This document shows positions 8,049 through 35,524 of a DNA stretch of 38,291 nucleotides, in pieces. Where the stretch lies: the sequence record SRR31156797_4149; one strand, given 5' to 3'. Position 1 is the first letter of the stretch. Each line of letters starts with the position of its first letter. The notes under the pieces were generated by a model. The model saw nothing but the letters and a program-made list of their open reading frames with translations. It made no database searches and was not told the origin of the DNA. Both the position numbers and the translations under genes were made by a program.

Positions 8049-8183
8049 GGTAAGAATGTGTCATTGGTCGATAGGCTGTAAATTGAAACACAATTACATT
8101 CAATAAACATAGTATAGATTTGAAAATGAGGCATTTTAGAATACTCAATACGACAAACACTCACCCTTAAAAAATCGTTACCC
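8049..8183 (+). mobile_element. Degenerate attC-like (gene-cassette recombination) site
   Basis: Begins GGTAAG (cf. GGTAAC) and ends CGTTACCC, with complementary ends ~134 bp apart and partial internal complementarity (TGTGTC.ATTG / CAAT.CGACA.ACA). It lies directly downstream of the CDF gene. Confidence 0.4.
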
Positions 8184-8193
8184 TAAATAAACT

Positions 8194-8219
8194 AAAGACC
8201 TCCCATCCGAGGTCTTTTT
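8194..8219 (+). terminator. Intrinsic terminator after the GNAT-CDF region
   Basis: AAAGACCTC-ccatcc-GAGGTCTTT followed by TT. Confidence 0.75.
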
Positions 8220-8405
8220 CATTTCCCATAATTTCACCGACATTTTCATCCACTTGGTCGATAAAGTCGTCCTGTTTGTATTTTTTTTTACTGTTCATCT
8301 CAACTTGACAGGCAAATTATTTTTATAGTAAACAAAAAGGACTTAAATTAAATACTGTTTTATGAGATATTTCTCTTTATGAGGGAATTGAATAAAATAA
8401 GGTAA

Positions 8406-8473
8406 CCCATCGGCTGGTCATCAACCGGGTTTTGAACTTTGGACAGTCACTCTTGGAAGATGAGGCCGATGGG
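8406..8473 (+). promoter_or_regulatory. Long GC-rich stem-loop in the 5' leader of the HU-like/DUF4469 gene
   Basis: CCCATCGGC (8406-8414) pairs with GCCGATGGG (8465-8473); TCATC with GATGA; CCGGG with CTTGG (G:U pairs); apical ACT-TTGGAC-AGT. It ends 31 nt before the ATG. Confidence 0.65.
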
Positions 8474-8504
8474 CCCTTCTAATATAAACTAAATTCGTTA
8501 CATT

Positions 8505-9203
8505 ATGAGTTTACGTTATGGATTAACATCAAATCATTTGACAGATGATCCTAATGATTACATGGGAGTTGTTACAGACAACAAAACCGTGAATGTTTCA
8601 AAAATCATGGAACGCATGATTGGTAAAGGTTCAACAGTTACAAAAGCTGAAGGGCTTTCGGTAATTGAAGAATTCGAGTACGCGGTTGTCGAAGAAGTTA
8701 AAAGTGGAAATACCGTCTCCACCGATTTGTTCCGAATTCACCCAAGTATTTCCGGAGTGTTTAACAATGAGAACGACAGTTTCGATCCTTCTCGTCACTC
8801 CATTCGTTTGAACATCAGTCCTGGACCTAGGTTGGCTGAAATCATTTCCAAAATCGAATTGGAAAAGGTGACTATTGTTTCGGCTCAACCTGAAATTCTT
8901 CTTTTTGTTGATTTAAAGACAAAAGAAGAGAATCAATCCTTCACGGCAGGGCAAATAGCTGCAATTAGAGGTTCTTTGTTGAAGTTTGATGAAGAAGATC
9001 CGCAACAGGGAGTATTTTTTATTGCTAGTGACGAAAGCGAAACAAAAGTTACTGAATTCGTAAAGAACAAGCCATCAGAGTTGCTTTTCTTTGTACCTGA
9101 TGCATTGACTGCTGGTACTTTTCAAATTGAATTAAGAACCATACTTCACAATTCAAAGGTTCTGAAAAAAACCAAATTAGCGAATATCCTTGTTGCCAAT
9201 TAA
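8505..9203 (+). CDS. HU-like DNA-binding domain + DUF4469 (Ig-like) protein
   Basis: N-terminal L..N.LT.DP.DY...GST.T.AE....E......G..V.T.LF...PSI.GVF.....FDP..H; C-terminal I.G..LK......GVFF...NKPSEL.F.VP..L..G...IE.RT, characteristic of this Bacteroidota family. Confidence 0.87.
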   Translation: MSLRYGLTSNHLTDDPNDYMGVVTDNKTVNVSKIMERMIGKGSTVTKAEGLSVIEEFEYAVVEEVKSGNTVSTDLFRIHPSISGVFNNENDSFDPSRHSIRLNISPGPRLAEIISKIELEKVTIVSAQPEILLFVDLKTKEENQSFTAGQIAAIRGSLLKFDEEDPQQGVFFIASDESETKVTEFVKNKPSELLFFVPDALTAGTFQIELRTILHNSKVLKKTKLANILVAN

Positions 9204-9229
9204 TTCGCTGTATGCACACATTTCAATAT

Positions 9230-9254
9230 GCCCGGTTTATTCCGGGCTTTTTTT
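9230..9254 (+). terminator. Intrinsic terminator of the DUF4469 gene
   Basis: GCCCGG-tttatt-CCGGGC-TTTTTTT. Confidence 0.9.
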
Positions 9255-9283
9255 ATGCAATACATAGGAATTTCTCAAGAAGC

Positions 9284-9398
9284 TTGAGCACTACCACCCC
9301 ACTTCTTTGAGCAGTACTATACAAACAAGTAGAGCAATACTACCCAAATATCTTGGACAGTACTACCCAAGGAACTTGGGCAATACTACCCGAAGCAA
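9284..9398. repeat. Tandem array of five 18-bp near-palindromes with 5-nt variable spacers (23-bp period)
   Basis: Units start at 9284 TTGAGCACTACCACCCCA, 9307 TTGAGCAGTACTATACAA, 9330 TAGAGCAATACTACCCAA, 9353 TTGGACAGTACTACCCAA and 9376 TTGGGCAATACTACCCGA. Spacers are CTTCT, ACAAG, ATATC, GGAAC, AGCAA. Confidence 0.9.
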
Positions 9399-9516
9399 TG
9401 GAAATTTTCCAGCTCCAATTGGCACTTTAAATGGCTCATTGACTATACCATAGGATTGCCTTGAGGTAATCTATATTTCAAATGAAATATCAACTTCCTT
9501 GTTAAAATATTCTGAT

Positions 9517-9951
9517 CTACCGTCGATCTACATAAAAAGTAAGAATCGCATGTGATGATATCCCATTCTCATCGAGAACTTGCGTGTGGAATTTGTAATT
9601 GCCCGGTATGGCATTCCCATTTACAACTAATTTTAAGGATACAATAACTTCCTCCTTATTGCAAAGGATAGTTTCATTTGTAAAAATCTCTTGTAAGGAA
9701 GAGGAAAAATACTTGCTGCAATTTAGCTCTGAAAGTCCACCCTTCTCTAAATGCATTTGATAAGTACTTATTTTTTGATTGCCTGTAAGTAATATTTTAA
9801 GGTTTAGGCTATCGTTTGGGTGAACGATGTTAAAAGGCATTGGACTTAGAAACTGTATGGTATTTTCGCTTGTTTGCCTCTGTTTTTTGGCTTTCCCAGC
9901 TAGTACTACAGTTGTAAAAAGTACCATTCCTACTAGTAGAATATACTTCAT
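9517..9951 (-). CDS. Secreted Ig-like protein, DUF4625-like
   Basis: Signal peptide; beta-rich, with PGNYKFHTQVLDENG resembling the DUF4625 G.Y.F...V.D..G motif. Confidence 0.5.
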   Translation of the reverse strand: MKYILLVGMVLFTTVVLAGKAKKQRQTSENTIQFLSPMPFNIVHPNDSLNLKILLTGNQKISTYQMHLEKGGLSELNCSKYFSSSLQEIFTNETILCNKEEVIVSLKLVVNGNAIPGNYKFHTQVLDENGISSHAILTFYVDRR

Positions 9952-9996
9952 GTTGGGTTATTTGGGTTTTAAGTTAGGTTGAGTATTAAAGGTAGT

Positions 9997-10060
9997 AAAA
10001 AAAAAAGAGCAGAGCACGAGCAATCGGGGTTGATTTTACTCGTAAAGCTCCACCCTTTTC
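9997..10060 (-). terminator. Long hairpin + U10 tract (terminator-like) on the minus strand
   Basis: Minus strand AGGGTGGAGC-TTT-ACGAGTAA...TTGCTCGT-GCTCTGCTCT followed by a T run; the G:U pairs work only on the minus strand. Confidence 0.7.
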
Positions 10061-10397
10061 ATTGTATAATTAATACCAAAATGAGACATGCTATTATCTT
10101 ATTTTAGTGTCTTTGCTCCCAATTCCATACTGAATTGGAGTCATATCTTAAACCCAAAAGAGTTCACTCTATAATGGGAATTCCTATTTTCATTATCAAT
10201 AGTAGTGCTTATTCCTTTACAAATTCATACCAATTGAAAAAACAAAATCTTCTTTTGAAATGAACCTCTATTTTCCAGACAAACAACACTATCCTATTGA
10301 TTTACTTTAAGTTCAAATTAACTCAACAATTTCAAATAAGGCAATAAGTATCTATATCAGGTGTATCTTACCTAAAAACAGATGTATTTTTTAATGT

Positions 10398-10444
10398 AAA
10401 AAGAGAAGATCAAGGGCAACCAGGAACAATAAGATTGCCCTTGA
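10398..10444 (-). terminator. Probable terminator of the N-glycan PUL
   Basis: TCAAGGGCAA (10410-10419) / TTGCCCTTGA (10435-10444) inverted repeat, followed on the minus strand by TCTTCTCTTTTT, ~50 nt after the last PUL gene. Confidence 0.55.
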
Positions 10445-10491
10445 ATTTCAGAGTATACTCATATAACGAGACAATGAGTTATATGTGTAAT

Positions 10492-11457
10492 TTAAAGGTT
10501 AATATTCTGACACAAATGACCGAAGTTCAACTTCTCATCTTTTATGTAGGAGTACACAGCCCAGACCTTATTACCATCGTTTTTGATGATTTCAACAGTA
10601 ACAGACTCTTTTAAGGTAATGCCTGCAAAGTAAAGATCAATGTCTAATACTCCATCAGATTTAACCCCAACCGACTTGTCGCCAGTGAAAAACAACTTAT
10701 AGTAATAGCCATAACTACTATTCAATCCAATCATGGTTGTTCCATCAGCAAACGAGCTTTCTTCACTTAAATAATACTCGTGCATATCATTGGTGTTGAA
10801 AATATAACGACTCTCTTCATTCGCCATAATCTCTTCCAATTCTTTAGCATCGTAAGGAATTGTAGTAGTGCTGATTGTTACCGGAATATCCAATGTCAAT
10901 CCATAAGAATCCGTTAATGTAATTGTTGCTTCTCCTTTTTTAGTCGCCACAAGTACAATTTCACTATCATTTTCAATTGTTGCCGAAACGATTTCACTTT
11001 CAGTGCTCACTTCATAATCTCCATTCCCTTTTGTAATCGGAATTCTCATGGTTTTAGGATGTCCCAAAGGCATTTTAACCATAATTTCTGTCGACTCCAC
11101 TTCAAGCACATCGTAAAAAGCCACTACATTTAACTCCTTGTATTGACTGTTTTTATCTGAGATAATTATCGAAGTTCGTCCTCTTGACAATGCACTTAAG
11201 GTAAGAACATTGTCTGCAAGTTCAACCGATACAACATCCGGATCTGAAGAAAAAGCATGATATTCTCCTCCTCCTTGTGTAATTTTTACATTCCCGGTAT
11301 TGTCCACTTTCACATCTACCGTAGATTTCTCAAGAATCAATTCGCTTACTTCCTCTGTTGGCAGAATATCATTATCATCGTCGTCGTCGTCGCAGGCAGT
11401 AAAGCCCAAAGGCAAAACCATCACCAGCAAATACAACAGTTTATTTCGTAATTTCAT
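10492..11457 (-). CDS. Surface lipoprotein with two Ig-like repeats (BT3988-like position in the PUL)
   Basis: Lipobox GFTAC followed by an acidic tract; two repeats IT.G.G.Y...S....V...........L.A...G...I.I/L.D. Confidence 0.7.
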   Translation of the reverse strand: MKLRNKLLYLLVMVLPLGFTACDDDDDDNDILPTEEVSELILEKSTVDVKVDNTGNVKITQGGGEYHAFSSDPDVVSVELADNVLTLSALSRGRTSIIISDKNSQYKELNVVAFYDVLEVESTEIMVKMPLGHPKTMRIPITKGNGDYEVSTESEIVSATIENDSEIVLVATKKGEATITLTDSYGLTLDIPVTISTTTIPYDAKELEEIMANEESRYIFNTNDMHEYYLSEESSFADGTTMIGLNSSYGYYYKLFFTGDKSVGVKSDGVLDIDLYFAGITLKESVTVEIIKNDGNKVWAVYSYIKDEKLNFGHLCQNINL

Positions 11458-11569
11458 CTGTTTCAGTTTTTTTATTAAATTTTAAAGCCTCTCCCGATAT
11501 TGTTCCCGGGAGAATACTTAAACAATTTCAACCTGGTAAAAAAGGAGATATCAAATCCCTTTTGTAATT

Positions 11570-12973
11570 CTACCAGTCTTTCTTAAATGGCTTTTCATCG
11601 TACACCAATTCATCATCGAACAGCTTGTCGGCAATGCTTTCCATTGCTTGTTTCTGACGATCGAAATTGTCTCGGAACGGATCCATAGCAAAAATCATAT
11701 GCGAGCCATAACCATCGTTACGCATGTTTTCCAAATTTGAATCATCAGTCCAATAACCACGATTGAATTCCTGAGAATACAAAGCCATTCCTGATTTTGG
11801 CATTCCCGGATAATTCGAGCTCAAATCTGAACTTCCACCGTAATCATGAATACCATAATCAACAAAAGTACCCGATTGCTGACCATCAATATCTGGCAAA
11901 GATGATGTAGATCCATAAGCATAAGCACAAACCAATCGATCTGGCATAGCTTGTTTTGCCTCGAAACAAAGACGAGAAGCTGCTGCCGATGATGGAGATA
12001 CAAATCCTACAGGAGCCGGGTTTTGATATGCTGAATACTCATCATCAACAAAGATTCCATCTAAGTGATAAGAGTCGCAAACCACTTTCAATTCCTGAGC
12101 AAAAACTCTTGCCGTTTCATCAGCTAAGTTCGATACTCCTGCACGGTCGTGATTTCCTAAGATACCCAGTACGATTTTCATTCCTCTGTCCTGCAAAGGC
12201 TTCAAATATTTCTCTCTGTTATCTAGAATGTGCTGAACATTAGGATTGTTGTATACATATACTTTGCCCGTTTCGTTGTTGTAATTGATGTTGGCAGAGA
12301 AAAGAATAACAATATCGATTAATGGCTTCCCACTCTCTTTCAGTGTAAAGCACAAGTTGTTCAATGGATTGGTATCATTCACCTCCATACAACTGATAAT
12401 CTTTATTCCACTAGCCTTGTCAACCGTAGGAATCGTGCTTAAATCTTTCACAAAAATCAGATAAACCGATTCTTTTTCAGACAATTTAATGCCACCTGAT
12501 TTAACTTCAACACGAACTGGAATTACATACGTTTTCTGAGCACTTAAAGCATCGGATGTTGCAAATTGAACCAATGCTTTTCCAGACTTATTGCTTCCCT
12601 TCTTCAATTGAAAGTCACTATTGAAACTTACCAATTCCTTAGGAAACAATTCATATTCTGTACTGTTTTCATCGTTGTAAGCATGAAGTACTTCCTCATC
12701 GAATTTCAAATTGGCTACCACATCGCTCTCCGCATTTTTTGAAGATGCCAAATACATTTCTGCCTGCCCCTGATTGCGAAACTCTACCATTGCGGTTCCA
12801 CGATTTCCTGAATTGTTTACAAGGTAAGCAATGGCATCGGAGCTTGTTGTGTATTGATTTTCATCAACACTTGTAACGTCAATGCTATCATCGCAGGCAG
12901 TAAAAAAGCCCATCATTGCAATGGCAGCAGTAAGTATCACATTTCTTTTGAATGATATATTATATTTCATCAT
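11570..12973 (-). CDS. DUF1735 + GH18 endo-beta-N-acetylglucosaminidase lipoprotein (BT3987/EndoH/EndoF1-like)
   Basis: Lipobox FFTAC; DUF1735 (YVIPVRV); EVNDTNPLN, LFSANINY, KPLQDRGMKIVLGILGNHD and catalytic LDGIFVDDEY (DxE intact). The start is moved from 13006 to the MMKYN codons at 12973, which removes the overlap and gives a normal signal peptide. Confidence 0.9.
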   Translation of the reverse strand: MMKYNISFKRNVILTAAIAMMGFFTACDDSIDVTSVDENQYTTSSDAIAYLVNNSGNRGTAMVEFRNQGQAEMYLASSKNAESDVVANLKFDEEVLHAYNDENSTEYELFPKELVSFNSDFQLKKGSNKSGKALVQFATSDALSAQKTYVIPVRVEVKSGGIKLSEKESVYLIFVKDLSTIPTVDKASGIKIISCMEVNDTNPLNNLCFTLKESGKPLIDIVILFSANINYNNETGKVYVYNNPNVQHILDNREKYLKPLQDRGMKIVLGILGNHDRAGVSNLADETARVFAQELKVVCDSYHLDGIFVDDEYSAYQNPAPVGFVSPSSAAASRLCFEAKQAMPDRLVCAYAYGSTSSLPDIDGQQSGTFVDYGIHDYGGSSDLSSNYPGMPKSGMALYSQEFNRGYWTDDSNLENMRNDGYGSHMIFAMDPFRDNFDRQKQAMESIADKLFDDELVYDEKPFKKDW

Positions 12974-12998
12974 TTTTCTGTTATTAATTACACTTCCA

Positions 12999-14141
12999 TT
13001 ACTCACCCGGTGCAGGCAAAGTAACCGGAGTCCATCGTAAAGTAGAATTTGCTACTGCATTATTTCCATTTCCAGTATGATCTTGAACTGAAAGAGCTGA
13101 TTCATCATCAAATTTCCAGTAGGCAACCAAACCTTCCGAAGCTGGATCTACATAATATGGATTGGCTGCAATATCTTCCTTGCTGCGAACCACATTCCAA
13201 ATTCTACACTCCGAAATTTCACCTGCCAGGTATCTTTCATCAGCCCATGAACGACCAATGCAGAATCCGCTTGTTCCACCTTGTCCAAGATTCACATCAC
13301 CTAAAGATTTGGTAGTTTCGGACTGCTTGCTCCCGTTCACGTAAACAATCATTTCTCCCGTAGCTGAATCGTAAGTTAAAGCAATGTGAACCCATTCGTT
13401 GGTTGGTAGACCTTTGTTAGAATCTCCATCAGGGAAATTACCATTACTTGTTGCTACCTGAATTTGATTGCTTGGGAATCCGGCATCTCCTAAACGAATT
13501 AAGAATTGTCCTTCGATCCCCATAACGGTACTAATCATTCTATCAAAATTGCTAACACGAATCAAAGCTTCCATGGTTAGCTGAGAAAGATTGTTACAAA
13601 CATCAGGATTGGTCCAGTTCACAGTCAAATAGTTCTCTTCGATATCAGCTACCACATTAATTAAGGCAGCACCTTTAATCACATAATACAATGTTCTGGC
13701 ACTTTCCAACACTTCGATATCTTGGCTATCCATGCTTACAGGCAAAACATATACAATCTCCCGATCCAATTGACTCAAATCCTTAAACAGAACTTTTATC
13801 TCTTTCGAAAGAACATTACCAGCAGTAATACTTACCGTATTTTCAGGTAATGAATAGTTTTCAGCAGGTAGCATTTCTGCATTGTCGTAATAAGCTAAAT
13901 TATAAGTAGCTACCAATGCCGGATCAATGTTGTAATTCACAATAATATCCTGCATGCTTGGTTTTGCAATAGCAGCCTGAATGCTTTTTTCAACATCATT
14001 TACTCCTGCTTTCACCAATAATTCGCTGGTTTTAGAAGAACTACTTACATATACTTTATTGTCGAAATCATCATCCGAGCCATCGCAGCCAAATGAAAAA
14101 ATCATTAAAAATAAAGCTGCATATAATATATAGTGTTTCAT
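12999..14141 (-). CDS. DUF1735 + LamG/ConA-like surface glycan-binding lipoprotein (BT3986-like)
   Basis: Lipobox SFGC; DUF1735 (YVLPVS); LamG signatures WVHIALTYD, YVNG, GEISECRIWN, GLVAYWKFD, D.TGNGN. Confidence 0.88.
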   Translation of the reverse strand: MKHYILYAALFLMIFSFGCDGSDDDFDNKVYVSSSSKTSELLVKAGVNDVEKSIQAAIAKPSMQDIIVNYNIDPALVATYNLAYYDNAEMLPAENYSLPENTVSITAGNVLSKEIKVLFKDLSQLDREIVYVLPVSMDSQDIEVLESARTLYYVIKGAALINVVADIEENYLTVNWTNPDVCNNLSQLTMEALIRVSNFDRMISTVMGIEGQFLIRLGDAGFPSNQIQVATSNGNFPDGDSNKGLPTNEWVHIALTYDSATGEMIVYVNGSKQSETTKSLGDVNLGQGGTSGFCIGRSWADERYLAGEISECRIWNVVRSKEDIAANPYYVDPASEGLVAYWKFDDESALSVQDHTGNGNNAVANSTLRWTPVTLPAPGE

Positions 14142-14147
14142 TTCAAT

Positions 14148-15212
14148 TTAGTTTTTAAGTGATGGATTAATGTTATCTATCGCCATTCTGGTGTAATGAT
14201 AAACACGCTCCGGACTAAAGAAATCATTACTCACATTATTAATCCCCATACCTGCAACTGTGAAACCTTCATGCTCCGAAGCCACCCAAACAGAGGTACC
14301 TTCAACAGAATAAGTTTCGCCGTCAGCCCAATATCCGGTCTTCATATCCGCCGGATCAAGAGAAATGGTTTCTGCGGTAACAATAAATCTGTCGGTTGGT
14401 ACTCCATCAACTGCTGCAGAATAAATGTTATAGCTTAATTTTGAACCGTTACCAGCAGCATCACATGGTATAATAATGTATTTGCAATCAGGTAAGAAAG
14501 TCTTATCTAAAAGGTTTTGAGGTTTTCCCTGGAACAATACCATTTTATCCTCATTTCTAGAGCTCCAGTCTTTCAAAATACCTATAAAAGCATTGTGATA
14601 ACTCATGTACTCTTTTTTCTCAAGATCAGTCATATGAAGAATGCTTTTTCCCTCATAAGAGAAACATACCCCATCGTAATTGTACTTGTTCACCAAAGCA
14701 AAAGAGTTGTGCAAACTGTCTACCATATAATTGATAAAAGTTGGCAGTGGAGATGTAATCTCTTCGCCTTCTTCTTTCGCCTTGTCCTCTGCATCTTTTA
14801 AAAGCGTATAGCTTAATTTAATGGCATCGAAACCAATGGTAAATACAAATTGGGTTCCTTTGTCCTCTCTTGTTTCTTCCATTTCTTCCATTTCTCTTTC
14901 CACCAAATTGTTAGGGTAGAGTATGGAAACAATATCAGTACTATCAGGAATTACATTGATATGCTGTGCACGATTAAAAGGCTGCTTTTCCTTATTGTCG
15001 AAACTCACATAAATGCATTTATGATCCGAGTTCTTATAAGCTTTTAAGCTTTCCAAATAATCTGCATAAAGTGCAGGGTTTTCATCTTCGATACCTGGCT
15101 GGTTAATATCCAATGTTTCATTTTCTGTCCAGTCTTCGCAAGAGCTAAACAGAAATGAAGCAATCAGACCCATTCCATATAGTGCAAATTTATATTTTGA
15201 TATATTCTTCAT
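14148..15212 (-). CDS. DUF4849 GH18-like lipoprotein, degenerate catalytic motif (BT3985-like)
   Basis: Lipobox FSSC-EDWTENE; Y..YLE.LKAYK.SDH; IPDS.DIVS; the motif reads YDGVCFSYE instead of DGxDxDxE. Confidence 0.82.
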   Translation of the reverse strand: MKNISKYKFALYGMGLIASFLFSSCEDWTENETLDINQPGIEDENPALYADYLESLKAYKNSDHKCIYVSFDNKEKQPFNRAQHINVIPDSTDIVSILYPNNLVEREMEEMEETREDKGTQFVFTIGFDAIKLSYTLLKDAEDKAKEEGEEITSPLPTFINYMVDSLHNSFALVNKYNYDGVCFSYEGKSILHMTDLEKKEYMSYHNAFIGILKDWSSRNEDKMVLFQGKPQNLLDKTFLPDCKYIIIPCDAAGNGSKLSYNIYSAAVDGVPTDRFIVTAETISLDPADMKTGYWADGETYSVEGTSVWVASEHEGFTVAGMGINNVSNDFFSPERVYHYTRMAIDNINPSLKN

Positions 15213-15218
15213 GTTCTG

Positions 15219-16796
15219 CTAGTTTTTATTCTTACAATCCCACCATACTTTAGTAGCCATATTATCAGGTCCACCTAACTTGTCGATAGCACCTTGCAAA
15301 TTGGTCGCATTTTCCTTGTACTCTCTTAAAGGATAAGGTAAACGACGAGCCATTTCAGCACCATCAACAACACCATTACTCTGGTTGTATGGCACTTCCA
15401 TTAAACGAGGATATCCGGTACGACGAAATTCAGACCATGCTTCATGACCCAATGGGAAATTGGCAATCCATTTCTGTGTAATGATGCGCTCCAAACCAAG
15501 TTCGAAATCATCCGCATCGTTCCATTTAATAGTTATGGAAGCAGGAACGCCAGTGTTATCATTCGCTCCAAGAGGATCCTTATAGTTTTCAGGAATACTG
15601 GCAGTATTCTGAGCATAAGCATCAGCACCAGAAACACCCCATTGGTTAAAAGACAATTCGATACCCTGATTGTAGAAATCATTGGCAGAACCACCCATAT
15701 TCCAACCGCGTAATGCACCTTCAGCTTTTAAGAAAGCACTTTCCGCAGCATTCATCCAAAGCAACTTATTGTTTGATTCAGCAATGTTCATGTTGCTGTA
15801 CTTGTGAGCTGTTGCCGATGATGCAATGTTAATTCCTGATCGTAAACCATAGTATCCATTATCAAATGCAGGATTATCAGTATCCTCGAAAGCACTCATG
15901 GTAAAATACTTTTCTCTACGTGGATCTGCATATCCATTCATATAAGAAGTAATGTCGGCAGAAACACGTGAATCACCTCCATTGTACTCATACATTACCA
16001 CTCTAAATGGTGATTTAGCAACCGTATTGTATGCATTGTCATCGTTGGTAGACATGCATCCCACCTCATGATTTACTGCCTCTTCAGCTTTAGTTTGAGC
16101 TAAAGTTGGATTGGCATAAACAATTCTCATGGCCAATCGCAATTTTAAAGAGTTGGCAAACTTAATCCAATTCAACACTTTACCATCGAAAACCTTATCA
16201 GCATAAGGGCTAAAATCAGACGTTTGATTTGGTGTTAACACCTCAATCGCATGATCCAATTCTTCCAACATTTTACTGTATACATCTTCCTGCAAATCGT
16301 AAGGAGCTTCCAATTTTCCATCTACTCCAATTTGAGAGTAAGGAATGTGACCATAAATATCTGTAACGCGATGTATGGCTGCTACTTTAATAATTTCTGC
16401 TACCGCCAAAGGAATTGGATCGGTGGTAACAGCCTTTAGTTGTACTTGATTGGCATAGATTTTTGGAATAATATCATTAAATGGCACCTGAATCCAGTGT
16501 TGCTCAGGATTATAGGTAGCATAGTTCTTTCCAACAAATCCGGAATTTGAATCTGCTAAGTATCCTCCAAAAGAACCTCCAAGCAAGCATTCGGTAAACT
16601 GATTTAAATTTACATCCGCAGGTATTACATAACCCTGCATCGCCACCATTGCTGCCCTTAAACTATATGCATCATATTGCATTTGGTCATCATTGGCATC
16701 GTATGGATTAGTATTGTAATCCTCATAATTCGAAGTACAGGAAGTACCCAATAAAATCGAAGCAGAGAACAACAAATTTATAATTGATTTTTTCAT
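15219..16796 (-). CDS. susD: SusD family outer-membrane glycan-binding lipoprotein (BT3984-like)
   Basis: Lipobox GTSC; RVTDIYG.IPYSQ, W.KFANSLKLRLAMR, IITQKWIA.FP.G.EAWSEFRRTGYP, T.VWWD. Confidence 0.93.
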   Translation of the reverse strand: MKKSIINLLFSASILLGTSCTSNYEDYNTNPYDANDDQMQYDAYSLRAAMVAMQGYVIPADVNLNQFTECLLGGSFGGYLADSNSGFVGKNYATYNPEQHWIQVPFNDIIPKIYANQVQLKAVTTDPIPLAVAEIIKVAAIHRVTDIYGHIPYSQIGVDGKLEAPYDLQEDVYSKMLEELDHAIEVLTPNQTSDFSPYADKVFDGKVLNWIKFANSLKLRLAMRIVYANPTLAQTKAEEAVNHEVGCMSTNDDNAYNTVAKSPFRVVMYEYNGGDSRVSADITSYMNGYADPRREKYFTMSAFEDTDNPAFDNGYYGLRSGINIASSATAHKYSNMNIAESNNKLLWMNAAESAFLKAEGALRGWNMGGSANDFYNQGIELSFNQWGVSGADAYAQNTASIPENYKDPLGANDNTGVPASITIKWNDADDFELGLERIITQKWIANFPLGHEAWSEFRRTGYPRLMEVPYNQSNGVVDGAEMARRLPYPLREYKENATNLQGAIDKLGGPDNMATKVWWDCKNKN

Positions 16797-16916
16797 CCGT
16801 TTATAATTTATTTTTATTTATCAGATGGAACTCTCGATGAATTTTTAACATACTTCTGTGAGTAAGTTAGTATGTTAAAATTCATGTTCGTTTCATAATT
16901 ATCATGATTAAATTGC

Positions 16917-19900
16917 TTAGAATTTAACTCTCACATTAAAACCATAACTACGTTGACTCGGCATCATAAAATAATCTATTCCCTGGTAATAGTTACCTGT
17001 AGAAGCAACTGATTCAGGATCGAATGGAGCTTTATTGTAGAACATAAACAAGTTTCTTCCAACCAATGTAAATGTCACATCAGCAAAATTATAGAACTTA
17101 TCTTTTGTAAGAGTGTAACCGATACTTGCCTCTTGCAAACGTACATTTGTTGCGCTATAAGTATAAAATTGAGGAATACCCGATTTTGCACCGATTGTAG
17201 TATACCATTTTTGGGCATCAACCATATCGCCTCCATTTACAACTACACCACCATTATCGCGAGCATTAGCTGAAGCTTCAGAAACACCATAACGATCTAA
17301 TGTAGCCTGAGTTGCAGAATATACAATACCACCTATACGAGCAGATACCATAAACCCAAGGTTGAAACCTTTGTATCTAAAATCATTTCTCCATGCCATA
17401 TTCGCATCAGGAAATACCGATCCCAGCTTTATGTCTTCCACATTGTACTCTGCAGCTACATTTCCATTCTGATCTACGAAAATTTTCCCGTCGCTATCAC
17501 GCTTCAAATCAGCGATAGAATACAAATCTCCAAGACCTCCACCTTTTTTCAAAATGAATCTGGCATTTGATAAACCACCAATATCCAAACGATCTTTAGT
17601 GATCACTGCTTTTGTCTCAGGATGTACATAATTGTCAACCAATTCTGAAATCTCATTCTCATTAGAACTCAATGTGAAATTAGAACTCCAGCTAAAGTCA
17701 TTCCAAGTATTTTTATATCCCAAAGCAAGCTCAATACCTCTATTTTTAACACTACCAGTTTGAACATACAAAGTAGAATAACCAGAAGAAACTGAGATTT
17801 GAGGATCGAAAGTTTGATTGAATGTTTTTGTGCTGTACAAACTCACATCCAAATCGAAATGTTTCATCAATTTAGCCGTTAAACCAATTTCCCATGATTG
17901 GGTTCTTTCCGGTTTTAAATCGTAAAGAGGATAATGTGTTTTGGTTTCCCATACTTTATTGGCATTGTCCCAAGCGTAGGTTGGATTTGCCAAAAAACGC
18001 GCAAATGGAAGACCTACAGATGCATAGGAAGCTCTAAGCTTTGCATATTGAATTTGCATTGGCAATTCGAATATCTCAGATAAAACAAATGAGGTACCAA
18101 TAGATGGATACATGAAAGAACTCTCATTTGAATGAGGTCCTGCCAATTGAGAAGCCCAATCGTTACGACCGGTAAGAGTTAGGTAATAAGCTCCCTTGTA
18201 GCCCAATTCAGCACTTGCAAAAACCGATTTGGTTTGATCATGCCAACCCGACTGCTCACGTTTGGTAGTCACATCGTCTAACTGATATACATTAAACAAA
18301 TTTGGAATACCATCGGCACGAATGGGTCCGCGATTCGACAATACATCCTCTTTCATATCTGAATAGGAAACCCCAATATTTGCTTGAAGCGAAAAATCTT
18401 CAGTAAAGTTCTTGTTGATATTCACAAGAAAATCGGCATAAGTTTGCTTGGCTTCATTTCTGGCAATTCCATACAAACCATTATTCGATCCTTCGGTAAG
18501 AGTTCTGTTAGATGTTGCGTATAATTTCTCAGTAAAATCATTAATCGAATTATCAATACGAACACGACCTCCAAAATTCAACCAACTTGCAGCATCGTAG
18601 CTAAAACCAGCATTTAACATGTAACGATTCTTCTTGTTCTCGCGTAAGTTTCTGTGAGCAATCCAATATGGATTTTGTCCAGCAAACTCATCAATACCTT
18701 GTGGCCAATATTGAGTATAAATCTTACGAGAAGAATCATATCGCTCATACATTTTTATATCATCCCAATCATCACCACGAGGGAAAAGATATGCTGTCAC
18801 CAATGGGTTGGCATAAACCCCTTGATTTACCATATTCATATCTTCTTGTTTGATATATGAACCACCAAAATCAATTTTTAGTTTGTCATTCAAACAACTG
18901 GTTGTATTTCTGAATGTAAAATTCTGACGATCGTAACTATTGTTTGGAACAATACCTTCCGAATTGATCGTACTTGCAGATAAATAGGTTTGGTTTTTGT
19001 CTGTTCCAGTAGAAAATGACATCGAATTTGTGAACACCATTCCTGTCTCGAAAAAATCATCCTTGGGTGAATAACCCATTCGGTTCGCATTATTCAATTT
19101 ATGTCCCCAACTTTTATCTAAAACCTGAACATCCGAACTTAAATCTCCCGTTCCATAAGAATTCTGGAAATCAGGCAATGCAAAGGTTTGCATCATTTCA
19201 ACATTACTAGTTAAAGTTAAAGAGGTCGAACCTGCTTTTCCTTTTTTTGTGGTAATTACAATAGCACCATTGGATGCATGACTACCATAAAGAGCTGCTG
19301 CTGCTGCCCCCGTTAAAACCGATACACTTTCAATGTCCTCAGGATTGATATCTGCAATTGCTTCTGTAGAACCATTGGATCCAAACTCAGTCTCACCAGC
19401 ACCACCAAAATTAAACATTGGCACACCATCGATTACATACAATGCATTACTCGATTGAGCAATGGTTTTTGTACCACGCATGATAACTTTACTTGCTCCC
19501 CCTACTCCGGAAGAACTGCTGTTGATGTTTACACCAGCAACTTTACCTGAAAGTGTATTTACAAAGTTGGCATCCTTATTTGAAACAATATCCTCACTGG
19601 ATACTTGCTGAACATTATAACTCAATGCTTTTGTGGCACGCTTGATTCCCAATGCTGTAACAACAACCTCGTTCAATCCAACAACAGAAGGAAGTAATAC
19701 AACATCAAAATACTGAGATTTTGTAATTGCAAATTCCTGATCTTCATATCCAATAAAAGTAATGGCCAATATTTCTGAAGTGTTTCCTGTCAATTCGAAC
19801 TCTCCATCAATATTTGTAATTGTCCCATTAGTGGTTCCTTTGATACTTACCGATGCTCCAATTATGGTTTCACCGGATTCATCCAAAACCTTACCCTTAA

Positions 19901-20276
19901 GTTTTACTTTTTTCTTTGCTGTAGCCTGATTCTTTTCAGTATCTTTTTTAGCTACAGTGATAATATTATCTTTTACGATACATTCAAAGCCTTGTCCTTC
20001 AAATATTTTATTTAAAACATCTGTAAGTTCAACTTCTTTTGCTTTGTAATTCACACGCTTATTCATATCTATATCACTGGTATTCATAGAAAAAGAATAA
20101 TTGTGCTTTGTTTGTAGAACTTCAACAGCTTCTTTTATTGTTAAGTTCTTGAAATTAACCGATATCTTCTGTGAAAATATGGGTGTAATCCCTCCAAACA
20201 GCGCTATAATCAACATTATTATTGATTTTTTCAATCTTAACTGCGCCAGATTGAGGTTTCCTGAAATTAAATTCAT
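16917..20276 (-). CDS. susC: SusC-like TonB-dependent transducer with N-terminal signalling (STN) extension
   Basis: STN-like N-terminus, CarboxypepD_reg-like domain, LNEVVVTALGIKR, plug DINPEDIESVSVL.G.AAAALYG, C-terminal Phe. Confidence 0.95.
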   Translation of the reverse strand: MNLISGNLNLAQLRLKKSIIMLIIALFGGITPIFSQKISVNFKNLTIKEAVEVLQTKHNYSFSMNTSDIDMNKRVNYKAKEVELTDVLNKIFEGQGFECIVKDNIITVAKKDTEKNQATAKKKVKLKGKVLDESGETIIGASVSIKGTTNGTITNIDGEFELTGNTSEILAITFIGYEDQEFAITKSQYFDVVLLPSVVGLNEVVVTALGIKRATKALSYNVQQVSSEDIVSNKDANFVNTLSGKVAGVNINSSSSGVGGASKVIMRGTKTIAQSSNALYVIDGVPMFNFGGAGETEFGSNGSTEAIADINPEDIESVSVLTGAAAAALYGSHASNGAIVITTKKGKAGSTSLTLTSNVEMMQTFALPDFQNSYGTGDLSSDVQVLDKSWGHKLNNANRMGYSPKDDFFETGMVFTNSMSFSTGTDKNQTYLSASTINSEGIVPNNSYDRQNFTFRNTTSCLNDKLKIDFGGSYIKQEDMNMVNQGVYANPLVTAYLFPRGDDWDDIKMYERYDSSRKIYTQYWPQGIDEFAGQNPYWIAHRNLRENKKNRYMLNAGFSYDAASWLNFGGRVRIDNSINDFTEKLYATSNRTLTEGSNNGLYGIARNEAKQTYADFLVNINKNFTEDFSLQANIGVSYSDMKEDVLSNRGPIRADGIPNLFNVYQLDDVTTKREQSGWHDQTKSVFASAELGYKGAYYLTLTGRNDWASQLAGPHSNESSFMYPSIGTSFVLSEIFELPMQIQYAKLRASYASVGLPFARFLANPTYAWDNANKVWETKTHYPLYDLKPERTQSWEIGLTAKLMKHFDLDVSLYSTKTFNQTFDPQISVSSGYSTLYVQTGSVKNRGIELALGYKNTWNDFSWSSNFTLSSNENEISELVDNYVHPETKAVITKDRLDIGGLSNARFILKKGGGLGDLYSIADLKRDSDGKIFVDQNGNVAAEYNVEDIKLGSVFPDANMAWRNDFRYKGFNLGFMVSARIGGIVYSATQATLDRYGVSEASANARDNGGVVVNGGDMVDAQKWYTTIGAKSGIPQFYTYSATNVRLQEASIGYTLTKDKFYNFADVTFTLVGRNLFMFYNKAPFDPESVASTGNYYQGIDYFMMPSQRSYGFNVRVKF

Positions 20277-20326
20277 ATTCTTGTAATGTTTTTTAGTTTG
20301 TTAATTAGAATTTAACTGAAAAATTT

Positions 20327-20366
20327 AGGTGGAGAATGTACGAGATTCTCTGCCTTTTTCTTTTTT
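20327..20366 (+). terminator. Antisense-oriented intrinsic terminator in the fecR-susC intergenic region (candidate cis-antisense sRNA 3' end)
   Basis: AGGTGGAGAAT-gtacgag-ATTCTCTGCCT-TTTTCTTTTTT. Two G:U pairs and the U tract both fit the + strand, opposite to the PUL. Confidence 0.7.
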
Positions 20367-20421
20367 GGTTAGCGTTTCTTCATTGGCAATTTTCAAGATT
20401 TGGGGTTATACTTCATGTTTT

Positions 20422-21411
20422 TCATTTTATGTATATCATATTGGCTTTTCTTTCTATTATCATCTTTTCATTCGCATTTAAAGCTGATAATATTTCATCC
20501 AAACTTTCATTGTTAACAAACATCGAGTAAAAGCGTTCCTTTTTAAGAGATTCATTCTCGATATTAATTCTTACATCAAAATATCTTTCGAGAGCCACTG
20601 CAATTTCACTTAAGGATTCATCCATAAAGTAAAAGCCTTTGCTGTTGTACCATAGCTTACGTGTTGCAACAATAAAATCGCTTTTTTGCAATTCTCCTGT
20701 ACTTTTCGAATACCTCACAATCTCGCCAGGCTTCAATAATTTTGTCTTGCTTTCTCCTTTGTAAAAAGCATTCATCCGAACCGAACCTTCCATCAAGGAT
20801 ACCGCTATATGGGAATCCTCACTATAGGATTTCACATTGAATTTTGTACCTAAAACTTCAACTGTCACCTCTCCCGCTGACAAAACAAATGGGCGAGATT
20901 TATCTTTTGTTACTTCAGCATATGCCTCACCTGCCACATATACCTGTCGAAGAGAATTGTTAAATTTCCTTGGGTAAATTAACTTGGTACCTGCATTCAA
21001 CCACAACTTAGAACTATCCGGCAAACAAACCATTTTACTTTGTCCGTATGGCACATACTCTTCTACCCATTCTTTAGGATTGGTGGTCTCTGTATAAAAA
21101 TAAAGACTCGACAATAGAATAGGAATCAACAAAACTGCCGCGGCAATTCGATACCATTCCCCAAATCTTCGCAAAACTGAAGGTTTTTCACCTTTATCAT
21201 ACTCCTGCAAATGGACGGCTTTCTCAAATTTTTCAAATGCTCTATTGACAAGGCGATCATCCTTATCAACATTAATCTCATTCAAGATCTCCATAAGCAA
21301 AGCCTCATCCCGACTTTCATCTTGAATGGTAGCAAGCCATTGCTCAACTTCAAGTGCTTGCTGAGGGGTGCATCGGTTATAATAATAATTTTGTAATTGA
21401 TCTTTCGTCAT
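20422..21411 (-). CDS. FecR family anti-sigma factor
   Basis: One TM segment (WYRIAAAVLLIP); LPDSSKLWLNAGTKL.YP, GEAY.EV.KD..RPF, VEVLGTKFNV.SY; DUF4974-like C-terminus. Confidence 0.93.
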   Translation of the reverse strand: MTKDQLQNYYYNRCTPQQALEVEQWLATIQDESRDEALLMEILNEINVDKDDRLVNRAFEKFEKAVHLQEYDKGEKPSVLRRFGEWYRIAAAVLLIPILLSSLYFYTETTNPKEWVEEYVPYGQSKMVCLPDSSKLWLNAGTKLIYPRKFNNSLRQVYVAGEAYAEVTKDKSRPFVLSAGEVTVEVLGTKFNVKSYSEDSHIAVSLMEGSVRMNAFYKGESKTKLLKPGEIVRYSKSTGELQKSDFIVATRKLWYNSKGFYFMDESLSEIAVALERYFDVRINIENESLKKERFYSMFVNNESLDEILSALNANEKMIIERKANMIYIK

Positions 21412-21450
21412 ATGGTTCTAAAAAATGCATCTTTTAATCGGTCGACATTA

Positions 21451-21480
21451 ATAGAACGAATCAGGAAGGGGTACTACGCA
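21451..21480 (-). promoter_or_regulatory. Candidate ECF-sigma-dependent promoter for the fecR-susC operon
   Basis: Minus strand GTAGTACCCCTTCCTGATTCGTTCTAT, 40-70 nt upstream of fecR and after an A tract. It has an ECF-like -10 core CGT and the usual position in sigma/anti-sigma PULs. Confidence 0.35.
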
Positions 21481-21576
21481 ATGGAAAAGAGTTTTTTTTT
21501 ACTTTTTTTAAACATTTAGTAATAGCCGACAAAAAGACCACTTGTAAAACGCTAAATATAAACACATAGAAAGAAA

Positions 21577-22158
21577 TTAAGAGCAAATTAAAATTCCTTC
21601 AAAATTTATAAATAAGAAGAGATAATACAGAGGAAGGTTTTTTCTGATGTCTTGCAATGCTAAAAACAGATGACGTTCAATGGTTCGAACTGATAATTGT
21701 AACTGTTCAGCAATTTCCTTATTAGAAAGCATTTTTTCGCGACTCAGCTGGTAAACTTTTCTACGTTGCTCTGGCATTTTTGAAACAATACCAGCCACAC
21801 ATTGAGTCATCGTTTGTACATCCATTGATTCTTCAAAATCTTCAACAAAAACTCTATGATTTTCCTGAACTTCCTGATGCGATTCATTTGATTTTAACCT
21901 AAAATGATCACGAACTTCATTCTTTGCCAAAACATATAAATAATTGTGAATGGATTGATTGGGGTTAAGTTTTTCACGATTGACCCAAACTTTCATAAAT
22001 ATATTTTGTGTAATGTCTTCGGCTAACCAAGCATTCTTAAGCATTCCTTTTATAAAAGAATGAAATAAAGTATACTTTTCATCGAATAATTTTCGAAAGG
22101 AGTTCATGTCTCCTTTTATCAACCCTTCAACCAAATCACGATCATAAAAATCATTCAT
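21577..22158 (-). CDS. ECF RNA polymerase sigma-70 factor (Bacteroides expansion family 1)
   Basis: GD..SFRKLF, AEDITQNIFMKVW.NR, MPEQRRKVYQLSR...LSNKEIAEQL.LS.RTIE.H. Confidence 0.94.
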   Translation of the reverse strand: MNDFYDRDLVEGLIKGDMNSFRKLFDEKYTLFHSFIKGMLKNAWLAEDITQNIFMKVWVNREKLNPNQSIHNYLYVLAKNEVRDHFRLKSNESHQEVQENHRVFVEDFEESMDVQTMTQCVAGIVSKMPEQRRKVYQLSREKMLSNKEIAEQLQLSVRTIERHLFLALQDIRKNLPLYYLFLFINFEGILICS

Positions 22159-24363: not shown

Positions 24364-25656
24364 TTAGTTTTCGTTCAATATCCCTCCTGTAATTCTGACT
24401 AATGCAGTACGCGATTGTATCAAATTAAAAATCGCATTTAAGCGTGATAAAGCAGCATTCTGATATATAATTTGAATATCGCGATAATTGAAGGAATTGA
24501 TACTTCCTGATTCATACTTATTTTTTGAGATGGACAGATTTAAATCTGCGGCGTCTAAATTTTCCTGAGCAAGCTTAAACAATTCCATTCTTACCTGATA
24601 CAACTCAAATTGCTGCGCTAGCAAATTACTTAAGGCATGCTTCACATCTTCCGTTTCTATATCTCCAATTTCCTCTTCAATTTTAGCAATTTGAAGTGCT
24701 CTTCGGTTTGTGTTACCATTAAATATCATGAAATTTAAACTCAGATTGGCATATAAATTATGTGAATCGCTTGTACTTGATGGGGTTCCATCGTACTTTA
24801 TTTTGGTACGATTTCCCTGTATGCCAGTACCCAGACTAAGTTTTGGATAGAAATTACTTCTAGCCAAATCTACGTCTCTTTTCAAAATCATTTCCTGAAT
24901 GTATCTGTTCTTAAGACGGCTATTACTGCTTAGCATTTTATCCAACAAGTCTGCCAATTTAAAATCTTCCGGTACAGCCTTAAATTCATCAGAAAAACGA
25001 TAGGTTTTACTTTCCTTAACTCCCAATAAAAAATTCAAATCCCGAACCGAATTGTTGAAATTCACTTCTTGTAATAGGAATGCTGAGCGATCTTCTAACC
25101 ACGCATTTTGAGCCTGCAATAAATCATAGGTTACCGAACTTCCGATCTCTTTGCCAATCTTCTTTGTTTCATACCTATCTGCTGACAAATCCATAATTTT
25201 TCGACTCACCTCCATTCGCTCCTTTTCTAACAATATTTTATAGTAAGCTAAAATGATCAACTCAATTTTATTCTCAATGGCAATAATGGTATTTCCTTTC
25301 GACAATTGATTTAGATCGTCAAATTTATCTTTTCGAATTTTAACGGCAAAACCATTAAATATAGTCCAGTTAACATCTAAAGACGGAATTACACTCAACC
25401 TATTAAAATCACTACTTTCATTATAATCTTTTATTCCTCTTCCCTGAAGATTGAATTGAATACTTGGATATCTGCCAACGGCTCCCCACGAATTGTTCAG
25501 TTCACTGATTTCTTCGGTTTTTCGAAATATTTTTAATTCGTAATTGTTTTCCAAACCTATTCCAATGGCTTTGGAAAGACTTAGCTCTTCTTGTGCCATC
25601 AACGCGAACTGACAGCAAACCGAGAAGAGAACTAACAATGATACTTTTCTTATCAT
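24364..25656 (-). CDS. TolC family outer-membrane efflux protein
   Basis: Signal peptide; LSL..AI..GLENN, two OEP repeats, FYPKLSL; last gene of the RND operon. Confidence 0.9.
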   Translation of the reverse strand: MIRKVSLLVLFSVCCQFALMAQEELSLSKAIGIGLENNYELKIFRKTEEISELNNSWGAVGRYPSIQFNLQGRGIKDYNESSDFNRLSVIPSLDVNWTIFNGFAVKIRKDKFDDLNQLSKGNTIIAIENKIELIILAYYKILLEKERMEVSRKIMDLSADRYETKKIGKEIGSSVTYDLLQAQNAWLEDRSAFLLQEVNFNNSVRDLNFLLGVKESKTYRFSDEFKAVPEDFKLADLLDKMLSSNSRLKNRYIQEMILKRDVDLARSNFYPKLSLGTGIQGNRTKIKYDGTPSSTSDSHNLYANLSLNFMIFNGNTNRRALQIAKIEEEIGDIETEDVKHALSNLLAQQFELYQVRMELFKLAQENLDAADLNLSISKNKYESGSINSFNYRDIQIIYQNAALSRLNAIFNLIQSRTALVRITGGILNEN

Positions 25657-25678
25657 CTGAATTTCATTTATTATTTAA

Positions 25679-25698
25679 CCCCAGACTAAAGCCTGGGG
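25679..25698. repeat. Short GC-rich REP-like palindrome
   Basis: CCCCAGAC-TAAA-GCCTGGGG in the RND-TolC intergenic gap; pairs fully on the minus strand with one G:U. Confidence 0.55.
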
Positions 25699-25709
25699 CA
25701 ATTCATTAT

Positions 25710-28700: not shown

Positions 28701-28874
28701 CTTAGGTGAAGCTCCGGGAAAAACCATTGAAACTGTAATGGTTTTTGACTCCGTTTGAGGAAAAAATGATTTCTTCATAAACCACAAAGAAGCCCCACCT
28801 GCAATCAGCATTACGGCTATAATCATTTTCCCGTAAAACGGATATCTTACAAATTGTGATATAATATTTCTCAT
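25710..28874 (-). CDS. RND efflux transporter permease (AcrB/AcrD/AcrF family)
   Basis: 1054 aa; PGASP.EVE..IT..MED, GILVDDGIVIGENI proton-relay motif, RFRAIILTTITT..GL.P. Confidence 0.95.
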   Translation of the reverse strand: MRNIISQFVRYPFYGKMIIAVMLIAGGASLWFMKKSFFPQTESKTITVSMVFPGASPKEVEEGITSRMEDAVRGIVGIKEMNSVSSEGFARLTITTTGDYDLDETLADVKNAVDGIPSFPTGAEKAVIAKRRSTTPAVRMAVTGNVDLLTLKIYADNIYDDLMRSKKMSQITLSGFPKLELSVEVKEDNLRRYNLTFNEISRAIANNNIDISGGAIKNRVEEILIRTRNRSVDPDQIGEIILKANPDGSYIRIRDVAKIHFQFQDVPNSTYMNKNPAVSINVNKLNEEDLEEISDFCNKYAKEFNEKYDDATLEVTFDFVTLLQSRLSLLYKNGGYGLLLVVISLALFLSFRLSLWVAWGIPASFLGMFIIANLMGVTINMISLFGMILIIGILVDDGIVIGENIYSHFEKGKSPRRAAIDGTMEVVPAVLTSVTTTMVAFSPLLLVTGNMEFLYEMAFIVVACLSLSLFESLFVLPSHVGNEIVLNRERKDNAFNRFRQRIEKGILYVRDHVYSGVLDKLVQWRWFVIFIPVALFFVTMGLFQGGFIQSTFFPNVTFDTFNINIAYKPGSNKDITIQKLKEFEKAVWEVNDELKEEFQDTATFIKYTGLSTGNAFGGQEVGPHAGNLSVTLRDMEGAPVSSFDISGRVKEKIGEVNDVEKYTIGAFNRWGAPVSISLLGNDLEQLNQANDFFQGELRKMASLYNINDNNPLGSREVRLSLKSKAYYLGMDLRSITSQIRQGFFGGQAQRLQEGKDEIKVWVRYPKSDRIFIGQMEDMRIRTPKGEFPLSELIDYEILRGPVSIQRYNGAREIRVDAELIDPSEPVPPILEYIETTILPELEGRFPDVRPEYQGQQKRSAEDIEELKIYFSIAFMLIIFIVMIHFRSFTQGIIVLMMIPLGWLGSAWGHGVEGFPVSMLSVWGMVALSGVIINDAVVFLSKYNLFVEEGMLPISAVKEAGKARFRAIILTTITTTVGLYPLILENSFQAQFLIPMAIALAYGVLVGTMFILMFFPVLIMVLNDIKRITQSFWEGKKLDSRDVEPKVKESKVSLD

Positions 28875-28878
28875 TACG

Positions 28879-35506: not shown

Positions 35507-35524
35507 TCTACAAGAAAAAACAAA

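Follow-up and report, generated by a model that had tools for sequence, protein, structure and literature searches.

We analyzed a 38,291-nucleotide (nt) stretch of DNA from sequence record SRR31156797_4149, which we refer to as the window. Positions 8505–9203 of its plus strand encode a 232-amino acid protein, here called HU-Ig, that joins an HU-like DNA-binding domain to an immunoglobulin (Ig)-like domain. The gene is preceded by a structured leader and followed by an intrinsic terminator (9230–9254, plus strand), which consists of a 6-base-pair (bp), all-GC stem (GCCCGG/CCGGGC, 9230–9247) and a run of seven T residues. Beyond the terminator lies an array of five 23-nt units (9284–9398). The initial annotation of this DNA had described a leader hairpin, an HU-like/DUF4469 gene, a terminator, and a downstream array of palindromes as a candidate self-contained module, and all four components were recovered, through folding, Pfam, the stem with its T-run, and Tandem Repeats Finder (TRF), respectively.

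Residues 3–121 of the protein match PF14848 (HU-DNA_bdg; 109.8 bits, cut-off 30) and residues 135–223 match PF14734, the Ig-like domain DUF4469 (83.9 bits, cut-off 22.6). PF18291 (HU-HIG) scores 20.1 bits, under its cut-off of 26.2, and the sole NCBIfam match, HU_rel, also lies under cut-off. An AlphaFold2 (AF2) model of the protein (pLDDT 92) is predicted to be all-beta over residues 119–231. The top Foldseek match of this model is to the chains of 4fmr (E about 2e-18, whole-chain TM score 0.48), and chain 4fmr_A is also matched by phmmer (E 3.5e-12). Within the HU-HIG proteins, a clade of the HU/IHF superfamily defined by Burroughs, Kaur, Zhang, and Aravind in 2017 (PMC5499826), this protein falls in the Ig-fused subclade. 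In the AF2 model, residues 214–219 (LHNSKV) form a loop that connects the final two Ig strands; within it, H215-N-S-K218 is our candidate specificity loop.

Each unit of the array consists of an 18-nt core, TTGRGCARTACTACCCAA, and a 5-nt spacer, and the cores are candidate cognate binding sites. TRF reported a period of 23 nt with 3.7 copies (or 46 nt with 2.3 copies) over 9286–9391. Searching the TTGRGCARTACTACCCAA pattern with at most three mismatches located five plus-strand sites, at 9284, 9307, 9330, 9353, and 9376, against an expectation of 0.07; none of 100 shuffles reached six matches, and the window contains no second array with a period of 20–25 nt. The initial annotation was right to count five units, which are head-to-tail direct repeats rather than an array of palindromes; the cores themselves are imperfect 18-bp palindromes. 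All five units are kept in two same-species metagenome copies (L101 and L104) and in a relative whose HU-Ig protein is 95% identical (L102). When the window is set against L102, changes are seen at 11 of the 90 positions in cores and 11 of the 25 in spacers (Fisher p about 0.001), at 31 of 97 positions elsewhere in the intergenic DNA, and at none of the 18 in the terminator stem-loop. The cores thus evolve more slowly than the spacers and are under constraint.

Relatives of HU-Ig came from three sets: 12 loci found in a scan of genome contigs (Marinifilum, Ancylomarina, Carboxylicivirga, Saccharicrinis, and Marinilabiliaceae; 58–79% identity); 31 paralog matches in five of the same genomes (2–10 per genome, 22–74% identity), which reflect a lineage-specific expansion with fast divergence; and PF14734 matches from a phylum sample (4 of its 61 genomes) and an order sample (7 of 81). 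Removal of duplicates, of one locus with a broken open reading frame (ORF; L012), and of another whose start could not be placed (L062) left 52 distinct homologs. An array was called when TRF reported a period of 20–25 or 42–48 nt with a score of at least 40 no more than 450 nt downstream of the stop codon. By this definition, 40 of the 52 homologs have a downstream array. The remaining 119,895 nt of flanking DNA hold four array-bearing segments, one of which is the array of L034, located just past the 450-nt limit; from this baseline, about one homolog would be expected to have an array. The array period is 22–24 nt almost throughout, frequently with a 46-nt super-period, and the unit sequence is private to each lineage though the period is conserved. 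Unit number varies by whole units, as in the 23-nt indel that separates L021 from L024. Downstream arrays were also present in three of four named records, namely Treponema saccharophilum pTS2 (L119; 23 nt × 4.8), Fulvitalea axinellae pFA1, and a plasmid of Parabacteroides distasonis; phage record MT836435 contains a homolog for which TRF detected no array. Pairing of gene and array is a trait of the family.

Several observations concern the surroundings of individual homologs. The only upstream array among the 52 homologs (L060) is an unrelated 7-nt repeat: a small opposite-strand ORF lies between two blocks of GGTAGCT/GTTAGCT-type repeats, about 250–1000 nt upstream of the gene, and this is a different system from the 23-nt arrays. 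Two HU-Ig genes of genome G101 share a long, perfect palindrome that resembles repetitive extragenic palindromic elements (GTAGAGACGGGTCTCAGACCCGTCTCTAC-like), which is downstream of one gene (L057) and upstream of the other (L063). On pTS2, the HU-Ig gene and its 23-nt array directly precede a leucine-rich-repeat gene. In Treponema denticola, TDE_2259 (PF14848 plus PF14734) lies beside lrrA and is listed as down in a mutant of trtA, according to the available text of that study (PMC12724145).

Comparison of related loci revealed that protein and array diverge together. The proteins of L001 and L003 are 88% identical and their arrays are unlike (TTGGGCAGTAC..CCCAA versus TTGGAAAGCTAATTCCAA). 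Seventeen of the 29 differences between these proteins fall within residues 173–184 and 211–232, a region that was set post hoc and for which a p-value is descriptive only. The same region is enriched for differences between L033 and L038, which are 84% identical and have different arrays (odds ratio 2.5, p 0.03), and two pairs with the same array, L021/L024 and L035/L036, exhibit no excess. Past the closest pairs, the test is weak: over nine pairs in which the array switches, three C-terminal bins contain 109 of 544 differences versus 34 of 236 in pairs that share an array.

The DNA itself reveals where the divergence begins. Between the window and the syntenic allele of M. fragile, homology extends from 8403 to 9157, is absent from 9157 to 9587, and resumes beyond that point; the products of the downstream neighbors are 53, 72, and 91% identical. 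The part that does not align from 9157 takes in the last 15 or so codons of the HU-Ig gene. For L001 and L003, 30-nt windows are 73–100% identical (most at least 83%) from −270 to about +600, and identity breaks down from about +620 on and across the array. The codons of the C-terminal hairpin thus form a single block of divergence together with the array.

A further association was found between the candidate specificity loop and the type of array within the clade whose HU-Ig genes bear the leader. Loops of the form H-x-S-K/N accompany TTG(G/C)GCAGTA-type cores at the window locus and in L102, L001, L105, L006, L011, and L106, as well as in L009, which was assigned by eye. Loops of the form Q-N-T/R-K accompany TATAGTAGTAACTATA cores in L004 (whose array is of the TATAGTAGTAAC type), L005, L007, and L060. 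These loop and array classes do not follow the division between Marinifilaceae and Marinilabiliaceae, and they occur on branches that are not joined in the tree. Across the family, the array sequence changes with the protein lineage, as predicted for a unit consisting of a protein and its cognate site.

The second conserved non-coding element of the locus is the leader (8396–8482, plus strand), which ends 22 nt before the ATG. Its long GC-rich hairpin (8406–8473) is closed by helix P1 (8406–8414 with 8465–8473), and folding of 8380–8510 yields −37.2 kcal/mol (z −2.7), a value equaled by 1 of 200 shuffles. Twelve aligned orthologous leaders contain two invariant internal loops, CUGGUCAUCAACC and GGAAGAnGAGG. 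Covariation is evident in their outer helices, where 79.5% of cells are paired, a figure that drops to 48% or less once the partner is slid, and where both sides have changed in 9 of 22 pairs. The covariance model R1, which was built from these 12 leaders, matched the window at 8396–8482 with 85 bits and had no other match there at E<0.5. A conserved hairpin, covarying outer helices, invariant loops, and a fixed spacing of 22–26 nt ahead of the ATG of two gene families are features shared with Rfam leaders and riboswitch candidates. The window's leader differs from these in having no match in Rfam 15; no family reached its gathering score anywhere in the window and none matched 8396–8482 at E values up to 10, while the array attracted only chance matches to miRNA models (E 0.28 and 7.1), far under gathering scores.

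Upstream of the leader, a putative promoter (8303–8364, plus strand) comprises ACTTGACAG at 8303–8311, GACTTAAATT at 8340–8349, and ACTGTTTTATG at 8354–8364. The order of elements ACTTGACAG .. ACTTAA .. GTTTT recurs before the leader copies of other genomes; a scan for sigma-70 promoters returned no sites, and because Bacteroidota promoters differ from the sigma-70 model, no −7/−33 promoter was assigned with confidence. The whole hairpin is contained in two contigs from RNA libraries, 8392–8818 and 8282–8742, and the leader of a relative begins such a contig at the position equal to 8400. These are Logan contigs, which reveal neither the start or end of a transcript nor its strand or level, and stretches of 8150–9550 that none of them covers are uninformative; DNA can also occur in RNA libraries. 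A variant in RNA-library run X16 has G>A at 8473, in the closing pair of P1, and lacks one G of a UGG bulge (8416); its depth is low and it may be an error.

R1 had matches in the order sample (2 of 151 genomes) and in a family sample (8 of 40), and the leader is limited to one clade. The 24 distinct matches precede genes of three kinds: seven HU-Ig genes, nine members of a 230-amino acid protein family, and five small, stand-alone HU-HIG genes; two others are remnants without an ORF and one is unclassified. The hairpin ends 22–26 nt before the ATG of HU-Ig and 230-amino acid family genes and 126–136 nt before that of stand-alone HU-HIG genes. Proteins of the 230-amino acid family (L079:1602–2285, L081, L085, L086, L089, L090, L091, L093, and L095) are 228–233 residues long, all-helical, and begin with MDYQxDFExWK. 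Searches of Pfam and of PDB folds (E ≤0.001) returned nothing for them, and in the Atlas they matched only unnamed Bacteroidota clusters. Five of these nine loci have downstream arrays with periods of 21 or 42 nt by TRF and CCAATTGGCAAT-like units. The stand-alone HU-HIG proteins (L083:1714–2097, L084, L087, L092, and L094) contain 127–128 residues (PF18291, E 1.6e-35), and three of the five are followed by palindromic arrays with periods of 22 or 44 nt by TRF. Decayed copies also exist, either as leader-bearing HU-Ig genes broken by stop codons or frameshifts or as truncated leader remnants without an ORF (L012; L110/L111; L078; L096).

Because the leader is common to three kinds of gene, it indicates a shared regulon rather than self-regulation. 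Its conserved internal loops do not change between HU-Ig genes whose arrays differ, most HU-Ig paralogs have no leader, and it does not look like the private operator of the HU-Ig protein. The leader is probably a shared 5′ regulatory element that acts as RNA and is recognized by a common factor.

HU-Ig unit types also occur away from HU-Ig genes. The unit of L029 is found as three phased copies at a second locus of genome G002, between citrate-synthase-like and ABC-F-like genes. The L021/L024 unit forms a second array after an RND-pump gene, with about four units by eye and two by pattern search, and this array is conserved in two Marinifilum genomes, G002 and G003. G003 contains in addition about seven window-like units (TTGAGCAGTATTACTCAA) with no adjoining HU-Ig gene. 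The loci of second arrays are L097 (G003:C12:73055–73209), L098, L099, and L100 (G002:C2:771000–771063). The L001 unit pattern, allowing one mismatch, occurs at three sites in its 5.2-Mb genome, all within its own array, and the window-type pattern, allowing two mismatches, has isolated single look-alikes in that genome and no second phased array. The second arrays suggest targets in trans with a regulatory or architectural output.

We favor the interpretation, with a probability of roughly 0.6, that the array is the set of cognate DNA sites of the HU-Ig protein encoded next to it. In this model, which is drawn from comparison of sequences, an HU-Ig homodimer would bind each 18-bp imperfect palindrome behind its own terminator, and the five sites, phased at 23 bp, would assemble one nucleoprotein complex of about 115 bp. 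Sequence choice would come largely from two C-terminal Ig loops, chiefly the loop of the last beta-hairpin (HNSK, 215–218). Since the codons for this loop lie only about 100–200 bp from the array, specificity and site could diverge or be exchanged together. Expression would proceed from the conserved promoter block into an 83-nt structured leader on which a common factor, not the HU-Ig protein itself, probably acts, because two other kinds of gene in the same genomes share the leader. Our best guess for the cellular output is regulation or insulation, because sister genomes hold second arrays beside housekeeping and efflux genes.

A gene located beside a series of short, phased sites of its own is reminiscent of ParR-parC of plasmid R1, the heptads of the omega repressor, and plasmid iterons. 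In those systems the arrays are located upstream, over promoters or origins, and work with a partition NTPase or a Rep function. By analogy, cooperative complexes of multiple dimers might be expected here as well. The HU-Ig array differs in that it lies 3′ of a terminator, the protein has an HU plus Ig fold, and no ParA, ParM, or Rep gene is nearby.

Several points weigh against our interpretation. Good palindromes within the window's array are confined to units 4 and 5. Twelve of the 52 homologs have no array detectable by TRF; degenerate repeats are visible by eye in several of these (L007, L009, L030, and L038), and others, such as L043, L067, and L069, have no downstream repeats by TRF or by eye. 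L066 has a QNRK loop with a different array and is an exception to the loop–array association, and L004/L005, a pair with the same array, has an odds ratio of 3.9 for the C-terminal region. Because gene and array are adjacent and co-inherited, shared ancestry alone would correlate lineage with array type. The array may also be transcribed, as contigs from RNA libraries of two studies cover the terminator and array without the coding region (9206–9405 in X17 and 9231–9381 in X18). Mismatches in the leader exhibit no strand bias (14 G:U and 15 A:C) and so favor neither action as RNA nor action as DNA for that element. Finally, the available text of the study that defined HU-HIG proteins reports no conserved linkages for them, argues that sequence-specific binding is unlikely, and describes the Ig domain of 4FMR (BVU_2165) as partly filling the DNA clasp (PMC5499826). 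Our findings agree with that account as to the two domains, the fold, the many fast-diverging paralogs per genome, and the absence of a conserved protein-coding partner. They depart from its available text in identifying a conserved non-coding partner, the phased array, and signs of matched specificity. A literature search found no paper that joins HU-HIG or DUF4469 proteins to private or 23-nt arrays.

The arrays could instead be minisatellites that spread on their own and settle near HU-like genes without any functional tie to the protein. The closest precedent is BrickBuilt, a 23-nt minisatellite or MITE (miniature inverted-repeat transposable element) in Porphyromonas gingivalis described by Klein et al. 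in 2015; the available text of that report describes a single family whose 19 copies in each genome have leader and tail ends, and places one copy next to a PF00216 DNA-binding gene, drawing no link to HU-like proteins (PMC4596501). BrickBuilt and the HU-Ig arrays have in common 23-nt units arranged head to tail without spacers between genes of a Bacteroidota genome, and the gain or loss of whole units as well as second copies of some units elsewhere in sister genomes would be in keeping with a spreading repeat. The distribution argues otherwise and makes this explanation very unlikely. Here each gene lineage has a private unit that occurs at one or two loci in sister genomes, the window contains a single array, and the L001 unit is confined to its own array. 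The association with HU-Ig genes (40 of 52, against about one expected from the flanking baseline) is strong, the array is always downstream at the Bacteroidota and Treponema loci examined, and its period is conserved while its sequence is lineage-private. Cores are conserved relative to spacers, and leader or tail inverted-repeat ends of the MITE type were not obvious by eye in 9255–9283 or 9399–9430, a search that included no comparison with a BrickBuilt sequence. Another possibility, which we regard as unlikely, is that the array functions as RNA, with tandem hairpins in a 3′ untranslated region or a small transcript that would serve as stabilizer, protein sponge, or small RNA. The contigs in X17 and X18 that lack the coding region speak for this, as does the promoter activity ascribed to 23-nt BrickBuilt elements in the same text (PMC4596501), but these contigs are subject to the limits noted above for RNA libraries. 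In 7 of 40 loci, the sole terminator-like hairpin with a T-run follows the array, which would place the array within the mRNA in those cases; in 27 of 40, including the window with its strong terminator, such a hairpin lies between gene and array, so that inclusion in the mRNA is not a fixed property of the array, and in 6 of 40 none was detected. Arm pairs over 38 arrays comprise 720 Watson-Crick, 67 G:T, and 73 A:C combinations (2 G:T and 9 A:C mismatches in the window's own array), and this lack of the strand bias expected of RNA favors double-stranded DNA sites. So do the constrained cores and the centers of several arrays, which are also palindromic (for example, AGTACT), a property that the loop of a hairpin does not need.

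The remaining alternative is the one proposed in the initial annotation, in which leader, gene, terminator, and array form a portable selfish or addiction-like cassette that regulates itself through leader and array. Gene and array do co-occur, orthologs occupy different neighborhoods between species, HU-Ig homologs are found on plasmids and in one phage record, and the block of homology between L001 and L003 starts at about −280 and takes in promoter and leader. The proposal that the components would co-occur among DUF4469 homologs holds for the array, and fails for the leader, which is restricted to one clade and stands before other gene families. By the same token, the notion of a protein-plus-binding-site unit survives insofar as the array changes with the protein lineage, and the three parts do not form one co-varying unit. 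The presence of the leader before three unrelated kinds of gene and its absence from most paralogs argue against autoregulation through it. Portability is likewise not supported: no integrase, transposase, or recombinase gene and no direct, terminal, or boundary repeats were found at the window's locus. A search for an empty site found none; G002 has a cation-efflux gene 86% identical to that next to the module, with other flanks on both sides, and the one syntenic relative (L004) carries a diverged allele at the same place. The suggested role as a defense element found no support in PADLOC-DB 2.0, which identified 0 defense families in the window. The 9-mer TTGGACAGT, shared by the leader apex and array unit 4 and already allowed to be a possible coincidence, is one. 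The longest words shared by leader and array measure 6–9 nt in own pairs at 13 loci and 6–11 nt in 156 mismatched pairs, and they differ from locus to locus; the 9-mer was thus rejected as a link between leader and array. Taken together, these results render the cassette improbable, and we return to the view that the array consists of DNA sites for the HU-Ig protein.

The module is bounded on its left by a bidirectional terminator-like hairpin with a 9-bp stem (8194–8217, both strands), which had been noted in the initial annotation. This hairpin, which closes the region of an upstream cation-efflux gene, marks where non-coding DNA belonging to the module begins on that side; the upstream neighbors are this gene and a GNAT gene. 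Directly 3′ of the array is a single TCCAATTGGCAC site (9414–9425) that is kept in L101 and L104 and may be part of the module. The site is similar to the CCAATTGGCAAT units located behind leader-bearing 230-amino acid family genes in other genomes. On the 3′ side, the module meets the convergent end of a minus-strand polysaccharide-utilization locus (PUL; 9517–22158) controlled by a pair of extracytoplasmic function (ECF) sigma and anti-sigma factors. The PUL contains ECF sigma/FecR-type anti-sigma, STN-SusC, SusD, GH18, and BT_3987-like genes. Elsewhere, the window encodes an RND efflux operon (24364–30000) and a second SusC/SusD pair (32258–37057).

In Bacteroidota, few DNA-binding families have expanded as much as the poorly understood HU-HIG proteins, and the single detailed study of them argued against their reading of sequence. 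The present analysis adds to this picture the downstream layout of the arrays, the joint divergence of the array and a block of C-terminal codons, the association between loop and array, the leader regulon, and the second arrays. A private, phased array for each paralog provides a testable candidate target for every member of the family. Apart from the arrays, the leader that these genes share is itself a testable candidate for a novel cis-regulatory element, and it ties HU-Ig to two more uncharacterized families. It is tempting to combine these elements into a broader, more doubtful proposal. HU-Ig proteins may constitute a large family of matched protein–site pairs in which an Ig loop reads an 18-bp palindrome and the array is kept by the loop codons. 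In Marinifilaceae and Marinilabiliaceae, HU-Ig, stand-alone HU-HIG, and the 230-amino acid protein might then form a regulon under an undescribed leader, each with arrays of its own (23-, 22-, and 21-bp phasing, respectively), and extra arrays would mark chromosomal loci, the whole amounting to a new chromosomal addressing or regulatory system. If the pairing of HU-Ig proteins with cognate arrays is true, the family would offer a natural set of orthogonal protein–site pairs and a route to its function.

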